Part shown: positions 1,136-27,843 of the stretch, one piece after another | Layout: every line of letters begins with the position of its first letter | Position numbering within the stretch: the stretch's first letter is position 1 | Source of the DNA: a virus | Lineage: Duplodnaviria; Heunggongvirae; Uroviricota; Caudoviricetes | Length of the DNA: 37,921 bases | Reading direction: 5' to 3' (one strand) | IMG/VR virus record: IMGVR_UViG_2734482770_000007 | The notes under the pieces: generated by a model | Told to the model about the DNA's origin: nothing | Databases searched by the model: none | Seen by the model: only the letters and a program-made list of their open reading frames with translations | Translations under genes and position numbers: made by a program

Positions 1136-2812
1136 CTAAGCAACATGTAGTTCATCGTTGGCGGAAGTGGCTGCTTTGCGCTCCTGCTCAATAGCTAGAG
1201 ACTCTCTATATTCTTTCGCCTCTGCAAACATTGTCCAGTGGGCGTTGATGTTCATGTCTTCAATAACTGATTTGATTTCTTTTAAATTTACGTTAAAAAA
1301 CTCTTTTCGTGAGTTAATTTTATTGACCTGCTTTTCGTTGAAAACTTTATGCAGATGGTTTTCTAATGATGGTGCATCATCACTATAAATCATCGCATGA
1401 ACATCGAACGAAAAAGGAACACTAGCATCTCCGAGTTCACGAACACGATCAAGTGGTTCAAGGCGGCGTGTCATTCCAATTTTATATACATCTTCGCCAA
1501 ATGAACCAATATTACTAATGATATAGACGTGGCCTGATCTGGTTTGTTGAGCCATAGAAATAGCTCGTTGATTTTTAGCTTCAGCTTCTTCATATTTTAA
1601 CTGTAGTTCAGCTATTTTTTGCTCTAAAGCTAAGCGTTGTTCTTCATTTGCAAGCATAAGTTCTTTCGTTGCTTTATTTATAGCTTGCTGAATAGCTTTT
1701 TCTTCTTTTTCAGCTTCTTTTATCGCTTTTTCATATTCTCTACGAGCTCTTTCCTCTTCACGAAGCTGTTCTTTAATCCTTCTTTGCTCTTCTTTTTCTT
1801 CGAGCATAATTTCATTAACTGCTACACCCCATTTTAGCTCGTTGAGTCTTGCCTGAAGATAGATGTCACTTATTTTTGCGGACCTAAAGGCAGAGCCATT
1901 GTAATTTACTAGTTGAAATGCATCTTTTATTTCTTGGGAAAGTTTTCCAAAATTGTTGTGTTTGACTTTTGATAAAATACTGTCAACTCTTCCATTGAAG
2001 GCATCCAAAACAAAGTTTATGGCAGTATTACGCCTGTTTTGCTCAACATAATCACACGAAGCAGCTTTATTAGTTTTTATTAATGATTTGGTTAACTCTC
2101 TGGCTTTTTGTAATTCCTTGCCTGCATCTGTAAATTCATAATTTTCTGCCAGCTCATCAAGTACACTACGGTTAGGGATGATCCATTCATCACCATAACC
2201 TTCAATTTTATTTTTCATTGATTTTGCAACTGCTTCATATTTTTCTGCAAACTCTTTAGCTTCATATGCTGAACCAGCAATCTCCTTTGCTCTTTCTTCT
2301 GCATCAGAAATAATTTTTACTGCATTGTCATTAGCATTTGAGATTAGCTCATTTGCTTTATTATTAGCATTATCAAGACGTTCTTTGGCTTTCAGGCGTG
2401 CATCGCGAGCGTCTTTGGTGATTGCTATAGCTTCGCTATTAGCGTTGCTTATTGTCATCTGAGCTTGATAATTTGCTTCGTTTACTGTTTTAGCCGCCTT
2501 AATTTGGGCTTCATCTATTTTTTGCTTGGCTATTGAGTCCGCATTTTTTATCTTATTCTCTGCATCCATTACTGCGCTGTGCAATTCTTCGTATTGCCAC
2601 AATGGTGCTGCTCGCCCTTCAAGCTCTGATAATTCTCGTACGGTCTGTGCTAGTTTTTCTTGATTTTCAATCAGTTGGTTAGAAAGGGCTATGTTGTTAG
2701 CTGTCAGGTTATCTATAGCCGCTTTGTGTTTTTTACTTTGTTTAAATAATATTACAGCTAGAACAGGGGCGAGAAATGCTAATAAGAGTATAACGATGGC
2801 AAATGAATTCAT
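1136..2812 (-). CDS. Cargo (moron) protein: N-terminal transmembrane helix, long coiled coil, C-terminal T5orf172/GIY-YIG-like domain (DUF4041-type architecture)
   Basis: 558-aa ORF; N-terminus FAIVILLLAFLAPVLAVILF is hydrophobic; central region is Ala/Lys/Glu-rich heptad-like; C-terminus has GHVYIISN...YKIGMT resembling GIY-YIG/T5orf172 motifs. Visibly AT-rich versus backbone. Inserted between cI and int where 186/P2 have no gene. Confidence 0.6.
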   Translation of the reverse strand: MNSFAIVILLLAFLAPVLAVILFKQSKKHKAAIDNLTANNIALSNQLIENQEKLAQTVRELSELEGRAAPLWQYEELHSAVMDAENKIKNADSIAKQKIDEAQIKAAKTVNEANYQAQMTISNANSEAIAITKDARDARLKAKERLDNANNKANELISNANDNAVKIISDAEERAKEIAGSAYEAKEFAEKYEAVAKSMKNKIEGYGDEWIIPNRSVLDELAENYEFTDAGKELQKARELTKSLIKTNKAASCDYVEQNRRNTAINFVLDAFNGRVDSILSKVKHNNFGKLSQEIKDAFQLVNYNGSAFRSAKISDIYLQARLNELKWGVAVNEIMLEEKEEQRRIKEQLREEERARREYEKAIKEAEKEEKAIQQAINKATKELMLANEEQRLALEQKIAELQLKYEEAEAKNQRAISMAQQTRSGHVYIISNIGSFGEDVYKIGMTRRLEPLDRVRELGDASVPFSFDVHAMIYSDDAPSLENHLHKVFNEKQVNKINSRKEFFNVNLKEIKSVIEDMNINAHWTMFAEAKEYRESLAIEQERKAATSANDELHVA

Positions 2813-9717: not shown

Positions 9718-11295
9718 ATGGATATCAACTATGTTGTTTCAAAAATGGGGTTCGTAGATGATCTTATTAATGCAGGTTCATTTGATTCTGCCTATAAAAA
9801 TGTAAAGGATATTCTTAACGGTATCGATGAGATAAATACAATCAAAGAAAATAGAATAATTATATTATCTAATTTGGCCGGAAATCTTATTGATATCGGA
9901 AGTTTTAGTAATGTAAAAAATATAGCGGAGGAAGGCTTAAATATCTTTATAAACAATAAAAATGAATTTCTGACTATAATGAAAGAATCCTTATATTACT
10001 ATAACTTGGCAAATGGAATGAGCGCAGTTCTTGATTTTAATCCTAATGACAATGCAGATATTGATAGTTTCATTAAGCTGAATGATGTAAAAAATAATTA
10101 CTGGAAAGCGTTTAAACTTTCACAAGAAGATGGATGGGTGCCCCCTGATTTAATAGTTAATCTAGCTAATGTATTAAAAAAACAATATCGTATATCTGAA
10201 TCAATGGATTATTATGAACAAGCAATATCTATTGATAACTCAATTCCTCAGGCGTGGGTAAACAGATCTGAGGCATTAGAATTGCTTAATGAATTATCTA
10301 CAACATATACATATAAAATGATTAAAGAAGTTATTCGAGGTTATGAGTGTGCAATAAAGTCAGGGAAATGTTTTCCTTCATGGAAGGTTGCTCTTCAAAG
10401 AAAAATAAAGTACAACGAAAGTATATTGAGTGAATCATGTGTATATGGCATAGAGGATATAAGTACAGATGAAAGGCTCACGCAGGAGGAGTATGATACT
10501 TTATCAAACTACCAGAGGTTTTGTATAGATAATAATCTAATGTTGTCTGATCATTCGCTATATTGCAATTGTTATGCGTCATCTAAAGATAATATAACTA
10601 TTGCTACCACCGAGGAAGGTGTGTTTGGTGATTTTATAGTGCCAATGGAAATGGTGTTAAATAGACTTAAAGCTGAGTATTCCTTAGCACGAAAAATGTT
10701 TTTTGAATATAAGGTTGATAGTGAGTTTTTTGATGAGGATTCGGAGGTATGTTATTCTGAATTGTATAATGGAGAAATATTGTATGAAAATGTTGAGAAG
10801 TTAAGGGTTGCATTTAGAGCTTGCTTTGGTATCTTGGATAAAATAGCAGTTGCTCTGTGTCAATTATTTGATTTAAAACCAGATAGAGGACATATATACT
10901 TTCATAACTTCTGGCGGATTAGTGATGAAAAAAGAAAGCTTAAAATAAACAAAATAAATAATAAAGGATTGCTGGGTTTGTTTAGTATTGCTATGGATTT
11001 GAATGATAAAAATGGTGAGCTTGCTTTTTTTAAAGAATGGAGGAATGATTTAGAACATAAACTGTTAGTTATTCACGAGAAAGACATGTTAGTTGATTTA
11101 TATAATTCTTATGGGTTTTTTGATGAGGTGAGGTTTATTGAGAAAGAAAAGTTTGAGAAACAGCTCTTACAACTCATGAAAATTGTGAGATCAGCCGTTA
11201 TTCTTTTTGTGTTTACCATACGTATAGAGGGGAAAAAAAGTATTCCTAAAGATATGTTGACCATTAAAAATACCATCGAGAGAAAAGTATTGTAG
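9718..11295 (+). CDS. Cargo protein of unknown function; TPR-like N-terminal region, C-terminal HEPN-like Rx4H motif
   Basis: 525-aa ORF, strongly AT-rich by eye; AAGAGGA-like SD (AAAGAGGATTGAATG); helical repeat-like segment YYEQAISIDNSIPQAWVNRSEALELL; C-terminal EWRNDLEHK fits HEPN R-x4-H; followed by hairpin tcatcg-agc-cgatga plus T-run. Confidence 0.7.
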   Translation: MDINYVVSKMGFVDDLINAGSFDSAYKNVKDILNGIDEINTIKENRIIILSNLAGNLIDIGSFSNVKNIAEEGLNIFINNKNEFLTIMKESLYYYNLANGMSAVLDFNPNDNADIDSFIKLNDVKNNYWKAFKLSQEDGWVPPDLIVNLANVLKKQYRISESMDYYEQAISIDNSIPQAWVNRSEALELLNELSTTYTYKMIKEVIRGYECAIKSGKCFPSWKVALQRKIKYNESILSESCVYGIEDISTDERLTQEEYDTLSNYQRFCIDNNLMLSDHSLYCNCYASSKDNITIATTEEGVFGDFIVPMEMVLNRLKAEYSLARKMFFEYKVDSEFFDEDSEVCYSELYNGEILYENVEKLRVAFRACFGILDKIAVALCQLFDLKPDRGHIYFHNFWRISDEKRKLKINKINNKGLLGLFSIAMDLNDKNGELAFFKEWRNDLEHKLLVIHEKDMLVDLYNSYGFFDEVRFIEKEKFEKQLLQLMKIVRSAVILFVFTIRIEGKKSIPKDMLTIKNTIERKVL

Positions 11296-13209: not shown

Positions 13210-14972
13210 AAAATCTCCACAATATTGCTGGTATTGGCGGACTCGCCCTGCAGCGGTTCGTTAAACAGTGCGTGCATTGTTGCCCAGGCCAGATCGGCAT
13301 GGCTGGCTTCTTCGCTGCGGCTGGCTTCATAGGTCGGGCGGTTGCCACTGGCAGTGGTAGCGCGACGGATTGCCATAAATGACTGCGCAATGTCGGTGTG
13401 CCCGGCGTCAAACTCCAGACGGCGGTGGCTGATAATGTCGTAGGCCTTGAGTACCAGGGCGTTTTTAACGTTGGGGTTGTAGACAAACTCCCTGACGGCA
13501 GGAAAAAACGCTTTCACGTTCTCGTAAACCCCGTGACCGACGCCGGTCGAGTCGATGCCGATATAGGTCACGTTGTACTGTTCGGTCAGTTTTTTGATGG
13601 CGTCAGCCTGGGCGCGGAAGTCCATCCCGCGCCACTGGTGACGCTCAAGAATGCGGAACTTACCACCCGGCACGGCTGGCGGAGCCACCACCACGCATCC
13701 GGCACTATCGCCGTTCTGCGTACCTTTTGCCGGGTCATAACCGATCCACACCTCGCGCCAGCCAAACGGGCGCAGCGCCAGTGCATGAAAGTCGGTCCAG
13801 ACTTCCCAGCTGTCCACCATGCACGCCTGCAGCTCGCTGAGCGGAAACACGGACGCGAGATCGTCCACAAACTCGCACATCAGCAGGTTCTGGTATTCGT
13901 CCGGGCTGTACTCCATGCGCAACTGGTCAAGGTCGAACAGGTTACAGCCGCCGCGCACCGCATCTTCCACGGTGACTATCTGGCGGTATTGCCCGTCTGC
14001 GCACAGCAGGCCGGGGGCCAGATTGCTGTGGGACAGGTCGATGTCCACCTTATCGGCTTTGTTGCGCCCACGGTTGAACAGCGCACCGGACCAGAACGGA
14101 TAAGCACTGTGTGTCAGACTGGATGGCGTGGAAAAATAGGTTTGTCGCCATTTTTTGTGAATAGCCATACCGGAAGCCACTTTGCGCAGCTCCTGGAATT
14201 TCGGTATCCAGAAATATTCATCCAGATACAGGTTGCCGTGGTAACTCTGGGCCGTGCGGGCATTGGTGCCGAGGAAGTAAAGCGTGGCCCCGTTAGGAAG
14301 CACCATCGGATCGCCTTTCAGCTCCACCTCCACTTCTTTGGCAAAGTCGATGATGTACTGTTTAAAGACGTGAGCCTGAGCCTTGCTGGCAGAAAGGAAA
14401 ATCTGGTTACGCCCGGTCAGCAGGGCGTCAATCAGGGCTTCACGGGCAAAGTAAAAGGTCGCGCCGATCTGGCGAGACTTCAGCAGGTTGCGGATGCGAT
14501 TGGTTTTTCCGGCTTCCCACCAGTGGCGCTGGTAGTTGAACATGGAGGAATGGAAGATTTCTTCCAGCTTCTCAATCTGTTCATCGGTGAAAACATTCTT
14601 TTCCGGCTGACGGCGCGGGCCTTTGTTGCGGTTGGCGACGTTAGGGTTTAAGTCGGCTTCGTTGCCGCCATTGTTAAACTTGCCGATGCGCGCGTGGCGC
14701 TCCGACTGGCGCGCCAGCAGGTCAATCTCTTTGAAATCTTTCCCTTCTTTGTGCTCCTTCATAATGAGCTGGCAGTAGCGTGCGGCGGTGGTGAGCTGCA
14801 TCTGATCCAGCGGCCCATAGTCACCCCACTTGTCGCGTTTTTTCCAGCTATGAACGGTTGCAACTTTCTCGCCCAGCATTTCAGCAATGCGGGCGACGCG
14901 GTATCCCTGAAAGTACAGCAGCATGGCCTGCCGACGGGGATCGAGATCTGCGGGTGTCAGTGTGGTGTTCAT
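13206..14972 (-). CDS. P: Terminase large (ATPase) subunit (P2 gpP family)
   Basis: 588 aa (P2 P about 590 aa); overlaps portal start by 4 nt; divergent from scaffold gene. Confidence 0.9.
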   Translation of the reverse strand: MNTTLTPADLDPRRQAMLLYFQGYRVARIAEMLGEKVATVHSWKKRDKWGDYGPLDQMQLTTAARYCQLIMKEHKEGKDFKEIDLLARQSERHARIGKFNNGGNEADLNPNVANRNKGPRRQPEKNVFTDEQIEKLEEIFHSSMFNYQRHWWEAGKTNRIRNLLKSRQIGATFYFAREALIDALLTGRNQIFLSASKAQAHVFKQYIIDFAKEVEVELKGDPMVLPNGATLYFLGTNARTAQSYHGNLYLDEYFWIPKFQELRKVASGMAIHKKWRQTYFSTPSSLTHSAYPFWSGALFNRGRNKADKVDIDLSHSNLAPGLLCADGQYRQIVTVEDAVRGGCNLFDLDQLRMEYSPDEYQNLLMCEFVDDLASVFPLSELQACMVDSWEVWTDFHALALRPFGWREVWIGYDPAKGTQNGDSAGCVVVAPPAVPGGKFRILERHQWRGMDFRAQADAIKKLTEQYNVTYIGIDSTGVGHGVYENVKAFFPAVREFVYNPNVKNALVLKAYDIISHRRLEFDAGHTDIAQSFMAIRRATTASGNRPTYEASRSEEASHADLAWATMHALFNEPLQGESANTSNIVEIF

Positions 14973-15018
14973 GGCACAAACCTACAGCCTTGAATGAAGG
15001 CTTTCCCCGCCTGCGGTT

Positions 15019-15036
15019 TGTGTGGTTGTCGGTACA
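15019..15036. promoter_or_regulatory. Late-promoter activator box TGT-N12-ACA (Ogr/B site) upstream of O
   Basis: TGTGTGGTTGTCGGTACA read directly in the P/O divergent intergenic region, about 80 nt upstream of O start. Confidence 0.5.
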
Positions 15037-18237: not shown

Positions 18238-18440
18238 TGAAAGTGCGTGCGTATCAGTATGACACGGTGGACGCGCTTTGCTGGCGTCATTACGGGCGCA
18301 CGCAGGGTGTCACGGAGCAGGTACTGAAGGCAAATCCGGGGCTTGCCGAATACGGCCCCTTTTTACCTCACGGGCTGCAGGTGGAGCTGCCGGACATACC
18401 GACAACCACCACCGTGCAGACCGTCCAGCTATGGGACTGA
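18237..18440 (+). CDS. X: Tail protein X (LysM-like, P2 gpX family)
   Basis: 67 aa, identical length to P2 X; start overlaps L stop. Confidence 0.75.
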   Translation: MKVRAYQYDTVDALCWRHYGRTQGVTEQVLKANPGLAEYGPFLPHGLQVELPDIPTTTTVQTVQLWD

Positions 18441-18443
18441 ATT

Positions 18444-18659
18444 ATGACGCTTGAGCGAATCAGCGCCTTTATCACGTACTGCATCGCCGTTGTCCTGGCC
18501 TGGCTGGGCGATTTGTCCATCAAGGATGCCTCAACGCTGGGCGGCCTGATGATTGGTGTGCTGATGCTGGCTATCAACTGGTACTACAAACACAAAGCCT
18601 ACCAGCTTCTGCGCGACGGGCAGATCTCGCGGGAGGACTATGAATCCATCAATCGTTAA
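18444..18659 (+). CDS. Holin
   Basis: 71 aa with two hydrophobic helices and charged C-terminus; immediately upstream of endolysin. Confidence 0.65.
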   Translation: MTLERISAFITYCIAVVLAWLGDLSIKDASTLGGLMIGVLMLAINWYYKHKAYQLLRDGQISREDYESINR

Positions 18660-19152
18660 ACGCTGCCTTGTCGGGACCGTGCTGGCTATTGCTGCCACGC
18701 TGCCGGGTTTTCAGCAGCTTCACACCTCCGTGGAGGGGCTGAAACTGATTGCCGATTACGAAGGCTGTCGTCTGCAGCCGTATCAGTGCAGCGCGGGTGT
18801 ATGGACTGACGGCATTGGTAATACATCTGGCGTCATTCCCGGCAAAACCATTACGGAACGACAGGCAGCAGAAGGGCTTATCTCCAACGTGCTGCGTGTG
18901 GAGCGGTCACTGGAAAGGTGTGTGAAGCAACAGCCACCGCAGAAAGTGTATGACGCGGTGGTGTCATTTGCCTTCAACGTGGGGACAGGTAATGCCTGCA
19001 GCTCCACGCTGGTGAAATTACTCAATCAGCGGCGCTGGGCGGATGCGTGCCGACAGTTGCCGCGCTGGGTTTACGTGAAAGGTGTGTTTAATCAGGGGCT
19101 GGATAACCGCCGTGCGCGGGAGATGGCCTGGTGCTTACAGGGAGCAAACTGA
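18640..19152 (+). CDS. K: Endolysin, T4-lysozyme-like (GH24) with N-terminal signal-anchor (SAR-type)
   Basis: LKLIADYEGCRLQPYQCSAGVWTDGIGNT matches the catalytic E-x8-D/C-x5-T region of phage lysozymes; hydrophobic N-terminus CLVGTVLAIAATLPGF. Confidence 0.85.
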   Translation: MNPSIVKRCLVGTVLAIAATLPGFQQLHTSVEGLKLIADYEGCRLQPYQCSAGVWTDGIGNTSGVIPGKTITERQAAEGLISNVLRVERSLERCVKQQPPQKVYDAVVSFAFNVGTGNACSSTLVKLLNQRRWADACRQLPRWVYVKGVFNQGLDNRRAREMAWCLQGAN

Positions 19153-19153
19153 A

Positions 19154-19531
19154 ATGAAAAAGAAATTAATCAGCGGGCTGTTTCTGATGTTATGGATGGC
19201 GCTGTTAATCGAAGCAATGGTGTATCCGCAGGGGATTTTTCCGGTACTGGCAGCGTCCGGCGTTTGGGTAGCCTGTTTGCTGACATGGGCGGTAATTCCG
19301 GTAGCACTGGCTGCGTTAATTAAGAATGGCCCGCTCTGGCAGGAGTTGAGGGCATCTTTGCTGAAGACAATTACCCGAAAAGAAAACGTATTTATCAGCT
19401 GGGTGATGCGATTGCTGATTGTCGTCAGTCTCGCCTGGACGGGGTGGGCTATTACCCTGGTCTTTTATCTGCTGACCGTTATTGCCTTCTGGATGACCCG
19501 TAATCAGATTGCGCAACAGGTATCTGCATGA
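19154..19531 (+). CDS. lysA: LysA-like membrane protein (lysis timing)
   Basis: Multi-pass hydrophobic 125-aa product from ATG 19154 (MKKKLISGLFLML...); position as P2 lysA. Confidence 0.55.
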   Translation: MKKKLISGLFLMLWMALLIEAMVYPQGIFPVLAASGVWVACLLTWAVIPVALAALIKNGPLWQELRASLLKTITRKENVFISWVMRLLIVVSLAWTGWAITLVFYLLTVIAFWMTRNQIAQQVSA

Positions 19532-19956
19532 ACCGGTTGCTGCTGGTTGTGCTGGCGTTATTACTGGCGGCGCTGGGCTGGCAGACGTGGCGGCTGGCTG
19601 ATGCCAGCCAGACCATCAGCACGCAGGCAGACGAGCTGCAGAGCAAAAGCCAGGCACTGGCAAAGAGCAACAGCCAGCTTATCAGCCTGTCCATTCTGAC
19701 TGAAACCAATAACCGGGAGCAGGCGCGGCTCTATGCCGACGCAGAACAGACCAGCGCGCAGCTGAGACAACGACAACACCGAATTGAGGAACTGAAGCGT
19801 GAGAACGAGGGTTTACGCCGCTGGGCTGATACTCCTTTGCCTGCTGACATTATCCGGCTGCGGGAACGTCCGGCACTCACCGGAGGTGCAGCTTACCGTC
19901 AGTGGTTGTCCGCGAGTGACGCCGTGTCGGCTGGATCAGGCAGCGCCGCGCACTAA
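19528..19956 (+). CDS. lysB: Rz-like i-spanin (LysB)
   Basis: N-terminal TM helix then coiled-coil-rich periplasmic domain; contains embedded +1-frame lipoprotein gene. Confidence 0.65.
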   Translation: MNRLLLVVLALLLAALGWQTWRLADASQTISTQADELQSKSQALAKSNSQLISLSILTETNNREQARLYADAEQTSAQLRQRQHRIEELKRENEGLRRWADTPLPADIIRLRERPALTGGAAYRQWLSASDAVSAGSGSAAH

Positions 19957-20089
19957 CGGTGATCTGAACGCGTTGCTGGATGAAACGGAGGCCGCCTGGG
20001 CGGTCTGTGCAGACAAAGTGGACATGATTATTGCGTGTCAGGAGCGAAACAGTGAACAAACCACAATCCCTGCGCCACGCCCTCAATAA
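19799..20089 (+). CDS. lysC: Rz1-like o-spanin lipoprotein (LysC), embedded in lysB and overlapping R
   Basis: +1 frame inside lysB; lipobox LTLSGC after hydrophobic signal; Pro-rich mature part. Confidence 0.6.
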   Translation: MRTRVYAAGLILLCLLTLSGCGNVRHSPEVQLTVSGCPRVTPCRLDQAAPRTNGDLNALLDETEAAWAVCADKVDMIIACQERNSEQTTIPAPRPQ

Positions 20090-20483
20090 AGCGGTGCCTT
20101 ATGTCCGCAATAACCCGGACAAACTGCATCTGTTTGTGGATAACGGTTCGCTGGTTGCCACGGGGGCCAACTCCATGTCGTGGGAGTACCGTTACACCCT
20201 GAACGCGGTGATTGAGGATTTCAGCGGCGACCAGAATCTGCTGATGGCCCCGGTTTTGCTGTGGCTGAGGGATAACCAGCCCGATGCCATCAATAACCCG
20301 GCGTTACGGGAAAAACTATTCACCTTTGAGGTGGATATTCTGCGCAACGATGTCTGTGATATCAGTCTGAACCTGCAACTGACGGAGCGTGTGCTGGTCA
20401 GCACTGACGGTAGTGTGTCGAGCGTTGAAGCTATAGCGGAACCTGATGAACCTGAAGAAATGTGGACGGTGAAACGTGGCTGA
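20031..20483 (+). CDS. R: Tail completion protein (P2 gpR family)
   Basis: 150 aa; synteny and size. Confidence 0.75.
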   Translation: MRVRSETVNKPQSLRHALNKAVPYVRNNPDKLHLFVDNGSLVATGANSMSWEYRYTLNAVIEDFSGDQNLLMAPVLLWLRDNQPDAINNPALREKLFTFEVDILRNDVCDISLNLQLTERVLVSTDGSVSSVEAIAEPDEPEEMWTVKRG

Positions 20484-20922
20484 ACTGCAGAAAGTGGACG
20501 ACTGGCTGAGTGCCTTGCTGGCGAATCTGGAGCCAGCCGCAAGAAGCCGCATGATGCGCCAGCTGGCGCAGGAACTGCGCCGGATACAGCAGCAGAACAT
20601 CAGGATGCAACGCAATCCAGATGGCAGTAGTTATGAACCGCGACGGGTAACAGCACGCAGTAAAAAGGGGCGCATCAAACGTCAGATGTTTGCAAAGCTG
20701 CGAACCACAAAATACCTGAAAACTGCCGCCAGCGCCGATTCTGCCAGCGTGCAGTTTGAAGGCAAGGTACAGCGCATTGCCCGTGTTCACCATTACGGCT
20801 TGCGTGATCGCGTCAGCCGTAAGGGGCCACAGATACGTTATGCTAAACGTAGGTTACTTGGAATTTATGATACTGATTTTGATATTATAGAAGAGATAAT
20901 CATAAATTTTTTGATTCGTTAG
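20476..20922 (+). CDS. S: Tail completion protein (P2 gpS family)
   Basis: 148 aa; synteny and size; 3' end overlaps convergent cargo gene. Confidence 0.75.
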   Translation: MAELQKVDDWLSALLANLEPAARSRMMRQLAQELRRIQQQNIRMQRNPDGSSYEPRRVTARSKKGRIKRQMFAKLRTTKYLKTAASADSASVQFEGKVQRIARVHHYGLRDRVSRKGPQIRYAKRRLLGIYDTDFDIIEEIIINFLIR

Positions 20923-22081
20923 ATTCATTAATTTTCTTAAAGTATGAGTCTATTTTTTCAATTAATAAATTGATGCTTTTTATAAATTCTTTTGTTTCTT
21001 TCTCTGTTGGTTCATGTGATGTATGAGCTATTTTGTCACGTAATTCTTTCCTGTTTTTATTTGCATGTTGCCACTCAAGTGGCGCAATTTCGGGTACAGA
21101 GATGTTAAAGAGTTGTTTGAATAGTTTTTTACATCTATCATCGAACTTCCAGTTTTTATTTAATGTTTCTTTTGTCTGGCATTCATTGATACCATTGCGA
21201 TGAAAGGCATTAATAATTTTTCTGAGAATATAGCTTTCAAGGCCTGCTGATGCTTCAATTACGGCTGATCTAAATGCACCTTTATGAACAAGATTGTCTG
21301 CTCTAATCAATAATAGTTCAGGATGTTCATTGAATTCATTTGACATTAAACGTTTTTTGAAATTATCAATGAGACTTTCATCGTGTTTATACCAGCTTTC
21401 TCTCATTAATGGGGTGATTACTCCAACTAAAGGAATTGCACTTATCTTAATACCATCGCAATAATGCTCTTGTAACACTCCGTTGGTAAATCCTGAGCCA
21501 ACTTGATAAAGAGATATCTCGTCTGCAAATTGATCTTTAAAGGCAACTCTATACTGTTTTATAAAGTGGTTTATTATTCCGATACATTCCTCTGATCTTT
21601 TAGGTGGAAATATCTCTCTAGCAGTTTTTATTTTTCTCTCTAACTCTATTTTTTTATCTATATCTTGCTGGCTCATTTTGGATAGGAGCATCTCAGCATC
21701 TTCCACAGATGGGAAGTTATCTTCTTTCCTTATTTGGTTTCTTATAGAGTTGATTAGTTCTTCATGTGATATTTCTAAAAGGTCAAAACATTCCCAATAG
21801 TTGGCGAGAGAAATAATAGTCCGGCATTTCATTATCCCTCTTTCATTTGTGTGATGTGGTAGTAGTTGTTCTCTGGTACCGATTAATAGGGTTTGAGGGA
21901 ATAAGCTTGCATCTTTAAATAGTGCATAGTAATCGTTGTGAACTGTTAAGCGTAAATGGTTATTTTCATATAGAAAATCATAATCACCATCTGGAATATT
22001 GAGGACATAAGGCAACTCGACCAAGTAACGTGCAGCAAAGATCATTTCAGTCATCTCCATATGAGAATTCAATTGTGCCAA
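20900..22081 (-). CDS. Cargo protein of unknown function in the S-V (orf30-equivalent) locus; C-terminal HEPN-like Rx4H motif
   Basis: 393-aa ORF, strongly AT-rich by eye, antisense to flanking late genes; C-terminal KELRDKIAHTSHEP fits R-x4-H; no other recognisable motif. Confidence 0.7.
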   Translation of the reverse strand: MAQLNSHMEMTEMIFAARYLVELPYVLNIPDGDYDFLYENNHLRLTVHNDYYALFKDASLFPQTLLIGTREQLLPHHTNERGIMKCRTIISLANYWECFDLLEISHEELINSIRNQIRKEDNFPSVEDAEMLLSKMSQQDIDKKIELERKIKTAREIFPPKRSEECIGIINHFIKQYRVAFKDQFADEISLYQVGSGFTNGVLQEHYCDGIKISAIPLVGVITPLMRESWYKHDESLIDNFKKRLMSNEFNEHPELLLIRADNLVHKGAFRSAVIEASAGLESYILRKIINAFHRNGINECQTKETLNKNWKFDDRCKKLFKQLFNISVPEIAPLEWQHANKNRKELRDKIAHTSHEPTEKETKEFIKSINLLIEKIDSYFKKINESNESKNL

Positions 22082-22091
22082 AAATCATACA
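22074..22091. promoter_or_regulatory. Late-promoter activator box TGT-N12-ACA upstream of V
   Basis: TGTGCCAAAAATCATACA read directly; overlaps the start codon region of the divergent cargo gene. Confidence 0.5.
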
Positions 22092-22136
22092 CTGCCACAA
22101 CGATGAAAAAAAATCTTGCTTTGCAACTATAGAAGG

Positions 22137-22715
22137 ATGAATGCACAACTAACCGAAATCATGCGCCTTATCACCAACCTGATCCGCACTGGTGTAGTCA
22201 CCGAAGTGGACAGGGAAAACTGGCTTTGCCGGGTGAAAACAGGCGACTTAGAAACCAACTGGATCAGCTGGCTGACCCTGCGTGCCGGGAATGCCCGGAC
22301 ATGGTGGCGACCATCGGAAGGTGAGCAGGTGGTGCTGCTGAGTCTGGGCGGCAATCTGGAGACCGCCTTTGCGCTGCCCGCTGTCTATTCGAATCAGTTC
22401 GCACCACCGTCGACGTCGGCGGACGCCTGCGTGACAGAACATCCTGACGGTGGCTGGTTTGAATACGAACCCGCCACCGGGCGCTGGTATGTCAGGGGCA
22501 TCAAATCCATGGTTATTGAGGCTGCCGACAATATCACCCTGAAAACCAGTGAGTTTGTGCTGGAGGCTGACCGCACGCGTATTAATAGTGAAGTAGTGAT
22601 CAATGGCGGCGTTACCCAGGGCGGCGGTGCAATGAGTTCTAACGGAATTGTGGTTGATGCACATCAGCATACTGGCGTCCTGAAAGGCGGCGACACAACC
22701 GGAGGCCCGGTATGA
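22137..22715 (+). CDS. V: Baseplate spike/assembly protein (P2 gpV family)
   Basis: Start at ATG 22137 after AGAAGG; 192 aa; first gene of V-W-J-I-H block. Confidence 0.8.
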   Translation: MNAQLTEIMRLITNLIRTGVVTEVDRENWLCRVKTGDLETNWISWLTLRAGNARTWWRPSEGEQVVLLSLGGNLETAFALPAVYSNQFAPPSTSADACVTEHPDGGWFEYEPATGRWYVRGIKSMVIEAADNITLKTSEFVLEADRTRINSEVVINGGVTQGGGAMSSNGIVVDAHQHTGVLKGGDTTGGPV

Positions 22716-23071
22716 CGCTTTATAGCGGGATGAACAATACCAGCGGCAAAGTCATTACTGATATTGACCATCTGCGCCAGTCGGTGCGGGACATTCTGCT
22801 GACGCCGCAGGGTAGCCGCATTGCCCGTCGGGAATATGGTTCCCTACTGTCGGCACTGATAGATCAGCCACAAAATCCGGCATTACGCCTGCAGGTCATG
22901 TCGGCAGTGTATGTGGCGCTGAGTCGCTGGGAGCCACGGCTGACGCTGGATTCCATCACCATCAACAGCAACTTTGACGGTTCTATGGTGGTGGAGCTGA
23001 CCGGGCGGCGGAATAACGGTGTGCCTGTGTCCCTTTCCGTATCAACAGGAGCAGAGAATGGCAGTGATTGA
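22712..23071 (+). CDS. W: Baseplate wedge protein (P2 gpW / gp25-like)
   Basis: 119 aa; overlaps V stop; synteny. Confidence 0.8.
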   Translation: MTLYSGMNNTSGKVITDIDHLRQSVRDILLTPQGSRIARREYGSLLSALIDQPQNPALRLQVMSAVYVALSRWEPRLTLDSITINSNFDGSMVVELTGRRNNGVPVSLSVSTGAENGSD

Positions 23072-23966
23072 CCTTTCGCAGTTGCCTGCACCGCAGATTG
23101 TGGATGTGCCGGACTTTGAGACGCTGCTTGCCGAACGCAAGGCAGAATTTGTGGCGCTTCATCCGAAAGATGAGCAGGAAGCCGTGATCCGCACGCTGGA
23201 ACTGGAATCTGAACCCGTCACTAAATTGTTGCAGGAGAACGCTTACCGTGAGTTGCTTCTGCGCCAGCGCATTAACGAAGCCGCGCAGGCGGTGATGGTG
23301 GCTTACGCGATGGGCGGCGATCTTGACCAGCTCGCTGCCAACTACAACGTGACACGCCTGACGGTGACGCCTGCTGATAATGATGCTGTGCCGCCCGTTG
23401 CAGCTGTGATGGAAAGCGATGAAGCGTTACGCCTGCGTGTGCCTGCAGCCTTTGAAGGGCTTTCTGTTGCGGGGCCAACTGCAGCTTATGAATTTCATGC
23501 CCGAAGCGCCGACGGTCGGGTGGCGGATGCCAGTGCAACCAGCCCGGCACCTGCAGAGGTGGTGCTGACTGTCCTTAGCCGCGAAGGCGATGGAACTGCA
23601 GAAAAAGACCTGCTGGACGTGGTGGAAAAAGCTCTGAACAGTGAGAACGTCCGCCCGGTGGCTGACCGTCTGAGGGTTCGCAGCGCAGAAATCATCCCGT
23701 ATCGCGTGGAAGCCACCATTTTTCTCTATCCGGGACCGGAAGCAGAGCCGGTAATGGCAGCGGCAAAAGCCAGCCTGCAGAAGTACATCGCCAGTCAGAC
23801 GCGTCTTGGTCGGGATATTCGCCGTAGCGCCATCTTTGCCGCCCTGCATGTTGAGGGTGTGCAGCGTGTGGAGCTGGCTTCTCCTCTGGCGGATGTGGTC
23901 CTGAACAAAACACAGGCGGCATCATGTACGCAGTGGAGCGTAACCAACGGAGGAACGGATGAATAG
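23058..23966 (+). CDS. J: Baseplate protein J
   Basis: Start at ATG 23058 (MAVIDLSQLPAP...) matching P2 J N-terminus pattern; 302 aa. Confidence 0.85.
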   Translation: MAVIDLSQLPAPQIVDVPDFETLLAERKAEFVALHPKDEQEAVIRTLELESEPVTKLLQENAYRELLLRQRINEAAQAVMVAYAMGGDLDQLAANYNVTRLTVTPADNDAVPPVAAVMESDEALRLRVPAAFEGLSVAGPTAAYEFHARSADGRVADASATSPAPAEVVLTVLSREGDGTAEKDLLDVVEKALNSENVRPVADRLRVRSAEIIPYRVEATIFLYPGPEAEPVMAAAKASLQKYIASQTRLGRDIRRSAIFAALHVEGVQRVELASPLADVVLNKTQAASCTQWSVTNGGTDE

Positions 23967-24564
23967 TCTGCTGCCACCGGGTTCAACTTCACTGGAGCGC
24001 CGACTGGCGCAAACCTGTAGCGGGATTTCTGATCTGCAGGTGCCGCTGCGTGACTTGTGGAATCCGGCTACCTGTCCGGTCAGCTTCCTGCCTTATCTCG
24101 CCTGGGCGTTCTCTGTGGATCGCTGGGACGAGGGCTGGACAGAAAGCGTCAAACGCCAGGTAGTGAAGGATGCTTTTTATATTCATCAGCATAAAGGGAC
24201 CACCAGTGCCGTGCGGCGGGTGGTGGAGCCGTTCGGCTTTCTGATCCGCATTATTGAGTGGTGGCAGACCGGAGAGGCACCGGGCACGTTTCGCCTGGAT
24301 ATCGGCGTGCAGGACCAGGGCATCACTGAAGATACCTATCTGGAACTTGAGCGACTGATAAGCGATGCCAAACCATGTAGCCGCCACATGATCGGCATGT
24401 CCATCAATCTGCAGACCAGCGGCCCGCATTGGGTGGGAGCCGCCAGCTATCTTGGTGAAGAAATCACGATCTATCCGTATATCAACGAAACAATTATTTC
24501 CGGCGGCACCGCGCATGAAGGCGGGGCGGTCCATGTTATTGACACAATGAGAGTGAATCCATGA
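23959..24564 (+). CDS. I: Baseplate/tail-fibre attachment protein (P2 gpI family)
   Basis: 201 aa; overlaps J stop and H start. Confidence 0.75.
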   Translation: MNSLLPPGSTSLERRLAQTCSGISDLQVPLRDLWNPATCPVSFLPYLAWAFSVDRWDEGWTESVKRQVVKDAFYIHQHKGTTSAVRRVVEPFGFLIRIIEWWQTGEAPGTFRLDIGVQDQGITEDTYLELERLISDAKPCSRHMIGMSINLQTSGPHWVGAASYLGEEITIYPYINETIISGGTAHEGGAVHVIDTMRVNP

Positions 24565-27825: not shown

Positions 27826-27843
27826 TGTGTGAATAACGGTACA
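27826..27843. promoter_or_regulatory. Late-promoter activator box TGT-N12-ACA upstream of sheath gene
   Basis: TGTGTGAATAACGGTACA; near-identical in outline to the O-promoter box (TGTGTG...CGGTACA); about 85 nt upstream of FI start. Confidence 0.5.

Follow-up and report, generated by a model that had tools for sequence, protein, structure and literature searches.

A candidate single-protein HEPN ribonuclease encoded antisense between the tail genes S and V of P2-like prophages

Introduction

Why does a P2-like prophage carry, between two of its tail genes, an AT-rich gene that is encoded antisense to the surrounding late genes, and what might the product of this gene do? The question is raised by the virus record IMGVR_UViG_2734482770_000007 of IMG/VR, a DNA stretch of 37,921 nucleotides which was analyzed at its full length and is called the window in this work. 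The element is a P2-like (Peduoviridae) prophage of Escherichia coli. The gene in question occupies the interval between the tail-completion gene S and the baseplate gene V (S-V slot) on the minus strand and will be called the cargo gene. A first-pass annotation of the DNA had pointed to an R-x4-H pattern near the C-terminus of its product and had left the function unrecognised. The answer favoured here is a candidate defence ribonuclease (RNase) of the HEPN superfamily.

The studies of P2 cargo hotspots consulted here deal mainly with the A-Q and Z/fun loci; they touch only briefly on the S-V slot and on defence loci “within the late genes”. A literature search for the protein accession WP_228337576.1, for the protein family PHROG 28299 and for the P2-like prophage of E. 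coli E2348/69, which carries the same gene, yielded no paper.

Results

The structure of the cargo protein was predicted by AlphaFold2 with 22 homologues as input. This yielded a confident model with a predicted local distance difference test (pLDDT) score of 84.5 and a predicted template modelling (pTM) score of 0.77. All residue numbers of the model refer to the 384-aa form of the protein. The modelled parts are a beta-meander domain (residues ~1–90), a helical region (97–172), a beta-hairpin (193–210) and an all-helical C-terminal domain of about 160 aa (residues 226–383; 20906..21379, minus strand). A Foldseek search, one of the checks suggested with the first-pass annotation, revealed the HEPN protein 2q00 as the top match with a probability of 0.99 and a TM-score of 0.65 on the target. 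Csx1-Crn2 was also present in the match list.

The C-terminal domain was then read against the published definition of the HEPN superfamily, which places an R-x4-H motif at the end of helix 3, a polar residue after the arginine and an acidic residue in helix 2 (PMC3710099). In the model, helix 1 comprises residues 244–257. Helix 2 (261–286) bears the invariant R262 together with E267, which is conserved in at least 90% of the sequences. A helical insert (291–323) lies between helices 2 and 3. Helix 3 (325–344) terminates in R339-D-K-I-A-H344, and helix 4 spans residues 351–383. On the DNA the predicted catalytic motif is encoded by CGT GAC AAA ATA GCT CAT (21023..21040, minus strand), with the R codon at 21038–21040 and the H codon at 21023–21025. 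The C-terminal sequence KELRDKIAHTSHEP which bears the motif is present in the protein.

Conservation of the motif was examined at three levels of distance. R339 and H344 are invariant in 22/22 close homologues and in 41/41 full-length relatives, down to an identity of ~20%. In an alignment of 22 C-terminal domains these two residues form the sole invariant columns. Among 56 distant C-terminal relatives the histidine is invariant and the arginine is kept in at least 90%. The residue that follows the arginine is D, H or N in most of the 41 relatives. Thus, the domain combines the fold, an R-x4-H at the end of helix 325–344 and the upstream acidic residue E267 of helix 2. Since the model maps onto the published fold definition and R339 and H344 are invariant and correctly placed, membership of the cargo protein in the HEPN superfamily is established computationally. 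The fold, the place of the motif within it and its conservation thus all mark the motif proposed from the letters as a genuine HEPN motif. The RNase activity ascribed to the superfamily is metal-independent and depends on the arginine and the histidine (PMC3710099).

Sequence searches of the PDB with the full profile and with a profile of the C-terminal domain found no HEPN chain. The best PDB sequence match, alpha-latrocrustotoxin (E 0.003), was taken as noise. A likeness to cysteinyl-tRNA synthetase (CysRS; Pfam tRNA-synt_1e, E 1.8e-4; TIGR00435) was judged spurious, as it was seen in 1/41 family members and stayed below threshold.

To which HEPN family does the protein belong? The whole cargo protein matched nothing above threshold among the Pfam, NCBIfam and PADLOC models. 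In particular, the full-length protein gave no match to any HEPN family among PF18735, PF18739, PF05168, PF09670, PF18733 and NCBIfam. When the C-terminal domains of 22 diverse family members were scanned alone against Pfam, HEPN-type matches were obtained, all of them below the gathering cut-offs. RiboL-PSP-HEPN (PF18735) was matched by 8/22 domains (best E 7e-7), Ymh by 7/22, HEPN by 5/22, Apea-like HEPN (PF18739) and DUF4145 by 4/22 each, and Csm6 HEPN by 2/22. The C-terminal domain encoded in the window scored 15.7 bits (E 0.014) against PF18735, for which the gathering cut-off is 28.4 bits. Csx1/Csm6 HEPN models were matched by 12/56 of the distant proteins that have only the C-terminal module in common with the family. 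By these comparisons the cargo protein belongs to no named HEPN family tested, and its own family is captured by no Pfam, NCBIfam or PADLOC model.

The N-terminal region (residues 1–215; 21410..22054, minus strand) is proposed to be a sensor or regulatory domain. Its beta-meander carries the motif ELP[YF]xLNxPxGxY, which is conserved family-wide. Further invariant residues are N162 in the helical region and G192 by the beta-hairpin. For the N-terminal ~215 aa no match was found among solved structures. The ELP[YF]xLNxPxGxY signature is also recognisable by eye in distant relatives of 415–460 aa which HMMER matched only through the C-terminal module. Thus, the two-part architecture is old.

The extent of the gene was defined more closely. 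The maximal open reading frame (ORF) at 20900..22081 on the minus strand comprises 393 aa counted from TTG 22081 and was correctly located by the first-pass annotation; its length was probably overestimated. RefSeq WP_228337576.1 and PHROG 28299 start at ATG 22054 (384 aa), and the PHROG 28299 match spans residues 10–393 of the 393-aa ORF. Nearly all relatives begin with the N-terminus “MIF...”, which equates to ATG 22045. The resulting coding sequence (20900..22045, minus strand; stop codon 20900–20902) encodes 381 aa. As read from the sequence, a candidate Shine-Dalgarno sequence, GGAG (22055..22058, minus strand), lies 9 nt upstream of ATG 22045. Thus, the true start is probably ATG 22045 or ATG 22054 rather than TTG 22081.

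The gene has a guanine-plus-cytosine (GC) content of 33.2% and a GC content at third codon positions (GC3) of 27%. In 500-nt windows across the gene the GC content was 0.33–0.35, compared with 0.53–0.60 in both flanks, so the strong AT-richness noted at first is real. A comparison with the 87%-identical Citrobacter allele gave a ratio of nonsynonymous to synonymous substitution rates (dN/dS) of 0.17 for the gene; the lowest value, 0.11, was obtained for the C-terminal domain. Together with 21 homologue clusters and 140 family representatives, the dN/dS of ~0.17 shows at the sequence level that the ORF is a real gene under purifying selection.

The 21 homologue clusters show identities of 40–99% and come from Escherichia, Citrobacter, Enterobacter, Cronobacter and Pantoea. 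Every homologue is annotated as “hypothetical protein”. An exhaustive profile search with clustering at 50% yielded 140 representatives, of which some 60 were matched along most of the sequence. Erwinia billingiae and the planctomycete Gemmata massiliana are among the named members; of ten clusters that were looked up, most consist of one sequence each, mostly metagenomic. In E. coli NCTC11121 and E2348/69 the gene is carried by prophages integrated next to ybjL. It was present in 21/1041 E. coli genomes that contained the flanks. A tblastn search of 50,697 phage records revealed no homologue of the cargo protein. Phages with flanks about 94–96% identical to those of the window (500465-1, Klebsiella phages) keep S and V without the cargo gene. 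Comparative data of this kind show that the gene is non-structural and dispensable, in agreement with the first proposal that it is no structural gene.

Eight loci were compared, namely the window and loci with homologues at 87, 72, 69, 46, 44, 40 and 33% identity. In 8/8 loci the S-V slot contains the cargo gene and no other, antisense to the late genes and with S and V as its only neighbours. The identities of V and of the HEPN protein, respectively, were 0.86 and 0.87 in L019, 0.83 and 0.71 in L017, 0.84 and 0.68 in L020, 0.68 and 0.46 in L003, 0.64 and 0.40 in L004, 0.65 and 0.45 in L006, and 0.48 and 0.33 in L009. Divergence of the cargo gene tracks that of S and V but is faster than that of the tail genes, and its GC content is 0.32–0.37 in 8/8 loci. 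Because homologues of 33–87% identity share the slot and diverge along with the flanking tail genes, the HEPN cargo is, judged from these alignments, a long-standing resident of the slot in one sub-lineage and not a recent insertion. The AT-richness is therefore no sign of a recent acquisition, as the same slot and the same low GC content are found throughout that range of identities.

Occupancy of the slot was determined for E. coli P2-like prophages sampled at even intervals; 50 records contained both flanks. The slot was empty in 33/50 records (~two thirds) and held other single genes in 15/50, encoding DUF6216, TIR-domain (on the sense strand), FRG-domain and hypothetical proteins. Examples are a TIR-domain protein on the sense strand in E. 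coli D3 (L023, 839–1639), an antisense FRG-domain protein in ETEC4069 (L024, 741–1676) and an antisense DUF6216 protein in BL21(DE3) (L025, 665–1471), which is found likewise in E. coli B and BL21. Phage Cartapus has a 176-aa antisense ORF in the slot. In P2 it holds the unrelated, non-essential Orf30, which is encoded antisense and directly beside the pV activator site. No Pfam domain was found in Orf30 or in the Cartapus protein. Homology of the cargo protein to P2 Orf30 was rejected (hhalign probability 0.15). Like Orf30 and the DUF6216 gene, the cargo gene is a non-essential, antisense and AT-rich gene between S and V that abuts the pV activator site; its product differs in being an unrelated protein, and no HEPN motif was detected in theirs. 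The comparison across related prophages, which had been suggested at the outset, therefore reveals a polymorphic slot, and the view of the S-V interval as a variable cargo locus equivalent to that of P2 orf30 stands.

The exchanged segment is larger than the cargo gene. S (20476..20922, plus strand) overlaps the convergent 3′ end of the cargo gene by 23 nt, as described in the first-pass annotation. The last ~33 codons of S (~20820–20922) are AT-rich and co-vary with the slot cargo. Across the homologue loci the tail of S from residue 116 onwards drops in identity from 0.79 to 0.24–0.35, compared with 0.83–0.45 for residues 1–115. The co-variation of the AT-rich 3′ end with the cargo indicates that the exchangeable cassette begins inside S. 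When the cassette is exchanged, an essential tail-completion protein therefore receives a different C-terminal tail. An AU-rich hairpin at the overlap of S and the cargo gene was no better than shuffled sequence (z = −0.56).

A rearranged locus was observed in E2348/69 (L001, NC_011601.1 858223–897503; locus 18367–24135). Relative to S, a segment that starts with the HEPN gene, includes V-W-J-I and ends in a truncated H has the opposite orientation here, with a breakpoint at about window position 20844. The C-terminus of S is lost, and a gene for a Hin-like recombinase adjoins the 3′ end of the HEPN gene. The rearrangement has the look of an aberrant inversion by an invertase; it should disable tail production but leaves the HEPN gene intact.

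On the other side of the cargo gene lies the control region of V. A TGT-N12-ACA dyad, which forms the Ogr-type activator box of the late promoter pV, is located at 22074..22091 between the cargo gene and V, whose ATG at 22137 is divergent from the cargo gene. The cargo gene had been said to start beside this box. The box is indeed present; the TTG lies inside it, and the real start is 28–37 nt beyond it. The box precedes the ATG of V by 45–46 nt in the window as well as in 500465-1, a phage with an empty site, and in Cartapus, and a box was present in 4/4 further homologue loci examined. In the P2 record the pV activator site is annotated at 10239–10266 and the transcription start of V at 10308, the position of its ATG; this annotation implies that the V mRNA is leaderless. 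By count, TGT-N12-ACA is not enriched in the window (12 sites, 9.6 expected). As this count is not significant, the meaning of the box comes from its conserved position and its match to the P2 pV site. Four of the 12 sites (14961–14978, 15019–15036, 22074–22091 and 27826–27843) appear to match the expected positions of P2 late promoters, of which two are near the divergent P/O region, one is at V and one is ahead of the tail-sheath gene.

The centre of the box is 29–48 nt from the ATG of the cargo gene in all loci. At this short distance the Ogr box cannot act at −55 for the cargo gene; the geometry argues against a late, Ogr-driven expression. From the same geometry, the promoter of the cargo gene would have to overlap the pV control region.

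The window contains two other AT-rich cargo loci. The first encodes a 558-aa protein (1136–2812, minus strand) which matches PD-Lambda-1, a validated defence gene (PADLOC E 2.4e-120; Pfam DUF4041, T5orf172/MUG113), and lies between the integrase gene (1–1053) and a CI-type repressor gene. The second, in the classical A-Q (old/tin) hotspot, encodes a 525-aa LA2681-like HEPN protein (9718–11295, plus strand; PF18733, E 1.8e-38). Kinship of the S-V protein with this HEPN protein of the same prophage was rejected (hhalign probability 0.16).

Distant relatives of the cargo protein were found in other surroundings. One adjoins a serine recombinase, a type I restriction-modification-like system and HamA (Hachiman). 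Another follows the integrase of an integrated element and is itself followed by three unknown ORFs and a Prim-Pol gene; a third is part of an island with a YobI-type ATPase. Such distant members (L011/L012, 7001–8137; L021, 8001–9317; L022, 8001–9353) share ~22% identity or the C-terminal domain only and stand in non-P2 contexts. Their contexts consist mostly of unannotated genes, and the islands may hold further uncharacterised defence genes.

Discussion

We hold it to be moderately probable that the cargo gene encodes a self-contained, single-protein HEPN RNase of P2-like prophages which most likely serves abortive infection or superinfection defence. This reading is based on the invariant HEPN signature, the absence of a conserved partner gene, the TIR- and FRG-domain proteins found in the same slot and the defence and mobile-element contexts of the relatives. 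It is also based on the presence of PD-Lambda-1 and the LA2681-type HEPN protein in the same prophage. A promoter of its own, overlapping the pV control region, would drive synthesis of the protein in the lysogen. Since there is no antitoxin, the nuclease would be inactive by default. By analogy with HepS and Tha, the family-specific N-terminal domain may sense a cue of infection or restrain the nuclease. Once activated, paired HEPN domains would cleave cellular RNA (tRNA, rRNA or mRNA) in a metal-independent manner. This cleavage would stop phage production and abort the infection. During lytic growth of the prophage itself, Ogr-driven late transcription, convergent through S and divergent from pV, may shut off the cargo gene and in this way limit self-harm to the prophage.

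Several observations weigh against this explanation. Defence libraries do not recognise the protein: a scan of PADLOC-DB v2 gave CARF_HEPN_CSX20 with an E value of 0.31 as its sole match. That the N-terminal domain acts as a sensor is proposed purely by analogy. A consensus scan upstream of the cargo gene found no convincing sigma-70 promoter; the weak candidates TTGTGG-17-CACAAT and TATGAT both overlap the Ogr box. At the junction of S and the cargo gene a scan revealed no significant terminator or hairpin, whereas P2 has a terminator after S. Late transcription coming through S would thus run into the cargo gene. As a means of self-protection, a switch based on transcription interference is plausible but hypothetical.

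How does the protein compare with known HEPN systems? In the best reading, which is one by analogy, it works like the single-polypeptide defences HepS, Tha and ApeA, yet it belongs to none of them. ApeA is reportedly the single-gene HEPN defence of Gao et al. 2020 (Pfam HEPN_Apea, PF18739). Like the cargo protein, it is one polypeptide in which a HEPN domain at the C-terminus follows an N-terminal domain whose function is unclear, and 4/22 C-terminal domains of the family show the sub-threshold match to HEPN_Apea. However, the window protein matches neither the PADLOC ApeA models nor PF18739. Among the HEPN families of Pfam, RiboL-PSP-HEPN is closest in sequence, but the score is below the gathering cut-off and the cargo protein contains no RiboL-PSP domain. 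The CARF-HEPN proteins Csm6 and Csx1 of type III CRISPR systems share the order of a sensor domain, here a proposed one, followed by a HEPN RNase; an N-terminal CARF (Rossmann-like) sensor domain was not found in the cargo protein.

HepS of the Salmonella prophage Gifsy-1 (PDB 9OIJ/9OIK) is an anticodon nuclease of abortive infection that is inactive until triggered (PMC13043305). The cargo gene resembles it as a prophage-encoded single gene in an accessory-gene slot, without partner or antitoxin and with a canonical R-x4-H HEPN domain (PMC13043305). Neither sequence or structural homology to 9OIJ nor the solo-HEPN tetramer architecture was found. Tha of Staphylococcus aureus prophages is a tail-activated HEPN RNase defence, the autoimmunity of which is controlled via an antisense arrangement overlapping phage genes (PMC11087260). 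Compared by description, this overlap resembles the convergent and divergent arrangement of the cargo gene with S and V, and the likeness is conceptual. Tha differs by its dedicated protein inhibitor Ith, the product of an antisense gene that overlaps it; at the S-V locus an ORF of this kind is not conserved, and the host phylum is another one.

Other functions have to be weighed against defence. The cargo gene could be an addiction or toxin module which stabilises the prophage, restrained by its own N-terminal domain, by antisense RNA from read-through of S or by a host factor, so that its main role would be prophage maintenance and not protection against other phages. This is quite unlikely. 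A conserved small ORF or partner gene was not found in any of the eight loci, and the minimal-nucleotidyltransferase (MNT) partner of a HEPN-MNT toxin-antitoxin pair was likewise not found. The slot is empty in ~two thirds of the related prophages, and the gene is thus not needed for stability. It is also kept in E2348/69 despite the rearranged 3′ end of S. We rank lower a nuclease that serves the phage rather than the lysogen, during lytic growth or in counter-defence, be it by shut-off of host RNA, by degradation of immune signals (cyclic oligoadenylates) or by inactivation of host tRNases. The position of the gene inside the late region beside pV would fit such a role, as would the Csx1/Csm6-type models among the nearest recognisable relatives of the C-terminal domain (12/56). 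However, the late operons are encoded on the other strand, and the Ogr box lies too near the ATG of the gene for the canonical activation at −55. Moreover, distant relatives reside in non-phage defence islands, and type III CRISPR systems are seldom found in E. coli.

Lower again stands the explanation that the HEPN domain is non-catalytic and binds RNA or a ligand in a regulatory protein, or that the gene is silenced, for example by H-NS, and travels as an inert passenger. Against a non-catalytic domain, the arginine, the histidine, the polar residue after the arginine and the glutamate of helix 2 are all conserved, which is the signature of an active HEPN RNase; against an inert passenger stands the dN/dS of 0.17. 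A tail-assembly or accessory virion protein, finally, is very improbable. The position between S and V speaks for it and nothing else does, whereas the gene is on the strand opposite to the late genes, is missing from the closely related viable phages 500465-1 and the Klebsiella phages, and has no homologue in the phage records searched with tblastn. A structural-protein fold was not found either.

The defence explanation also has a more far-reaching form, which we consider unlikely, though less so than any of these rivals. The N-terminal module would be a new sensor fold that couples the sensing of a phage-made molecule to the HEPN RNase in a phyletically wide defence family, and the P2 lineage would have added a transcription-interference switch. 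Such a sensor-HEPN family would span the P2-like prophages of Enterobacterales, Gemmata and metagenomic islands. The switch would result from the antisense position of the gene between the end of the O operon and the Ogr-dependent pV, and it would turn the nuclease off when the prophage goes lytic.

Conclusions

Single-protein HEPN nucleases of prophages, HepS and Tha, were recently found to protect lysogens and yet to spare the phage that encodes them. The cargo gene of the S-V slot is a candidate of the same kind, from a family outside the Pfam, NCBIfam and PADLOC models, and its presence in the well-studied enteropathogenic E. coli (EPEC) strain E2348/69 makes it experimentally accessible. 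If the protein is active, it would add a defence family. The S-V slot, where TIR- and FRG-domain cargo is found too, would then be a third productive place to mine in P2-like prophages. Moreover, the locus would offer a tractable case for how a myovirus avoids self-killing by a nuclease that is encoded inside its own tail operon region.

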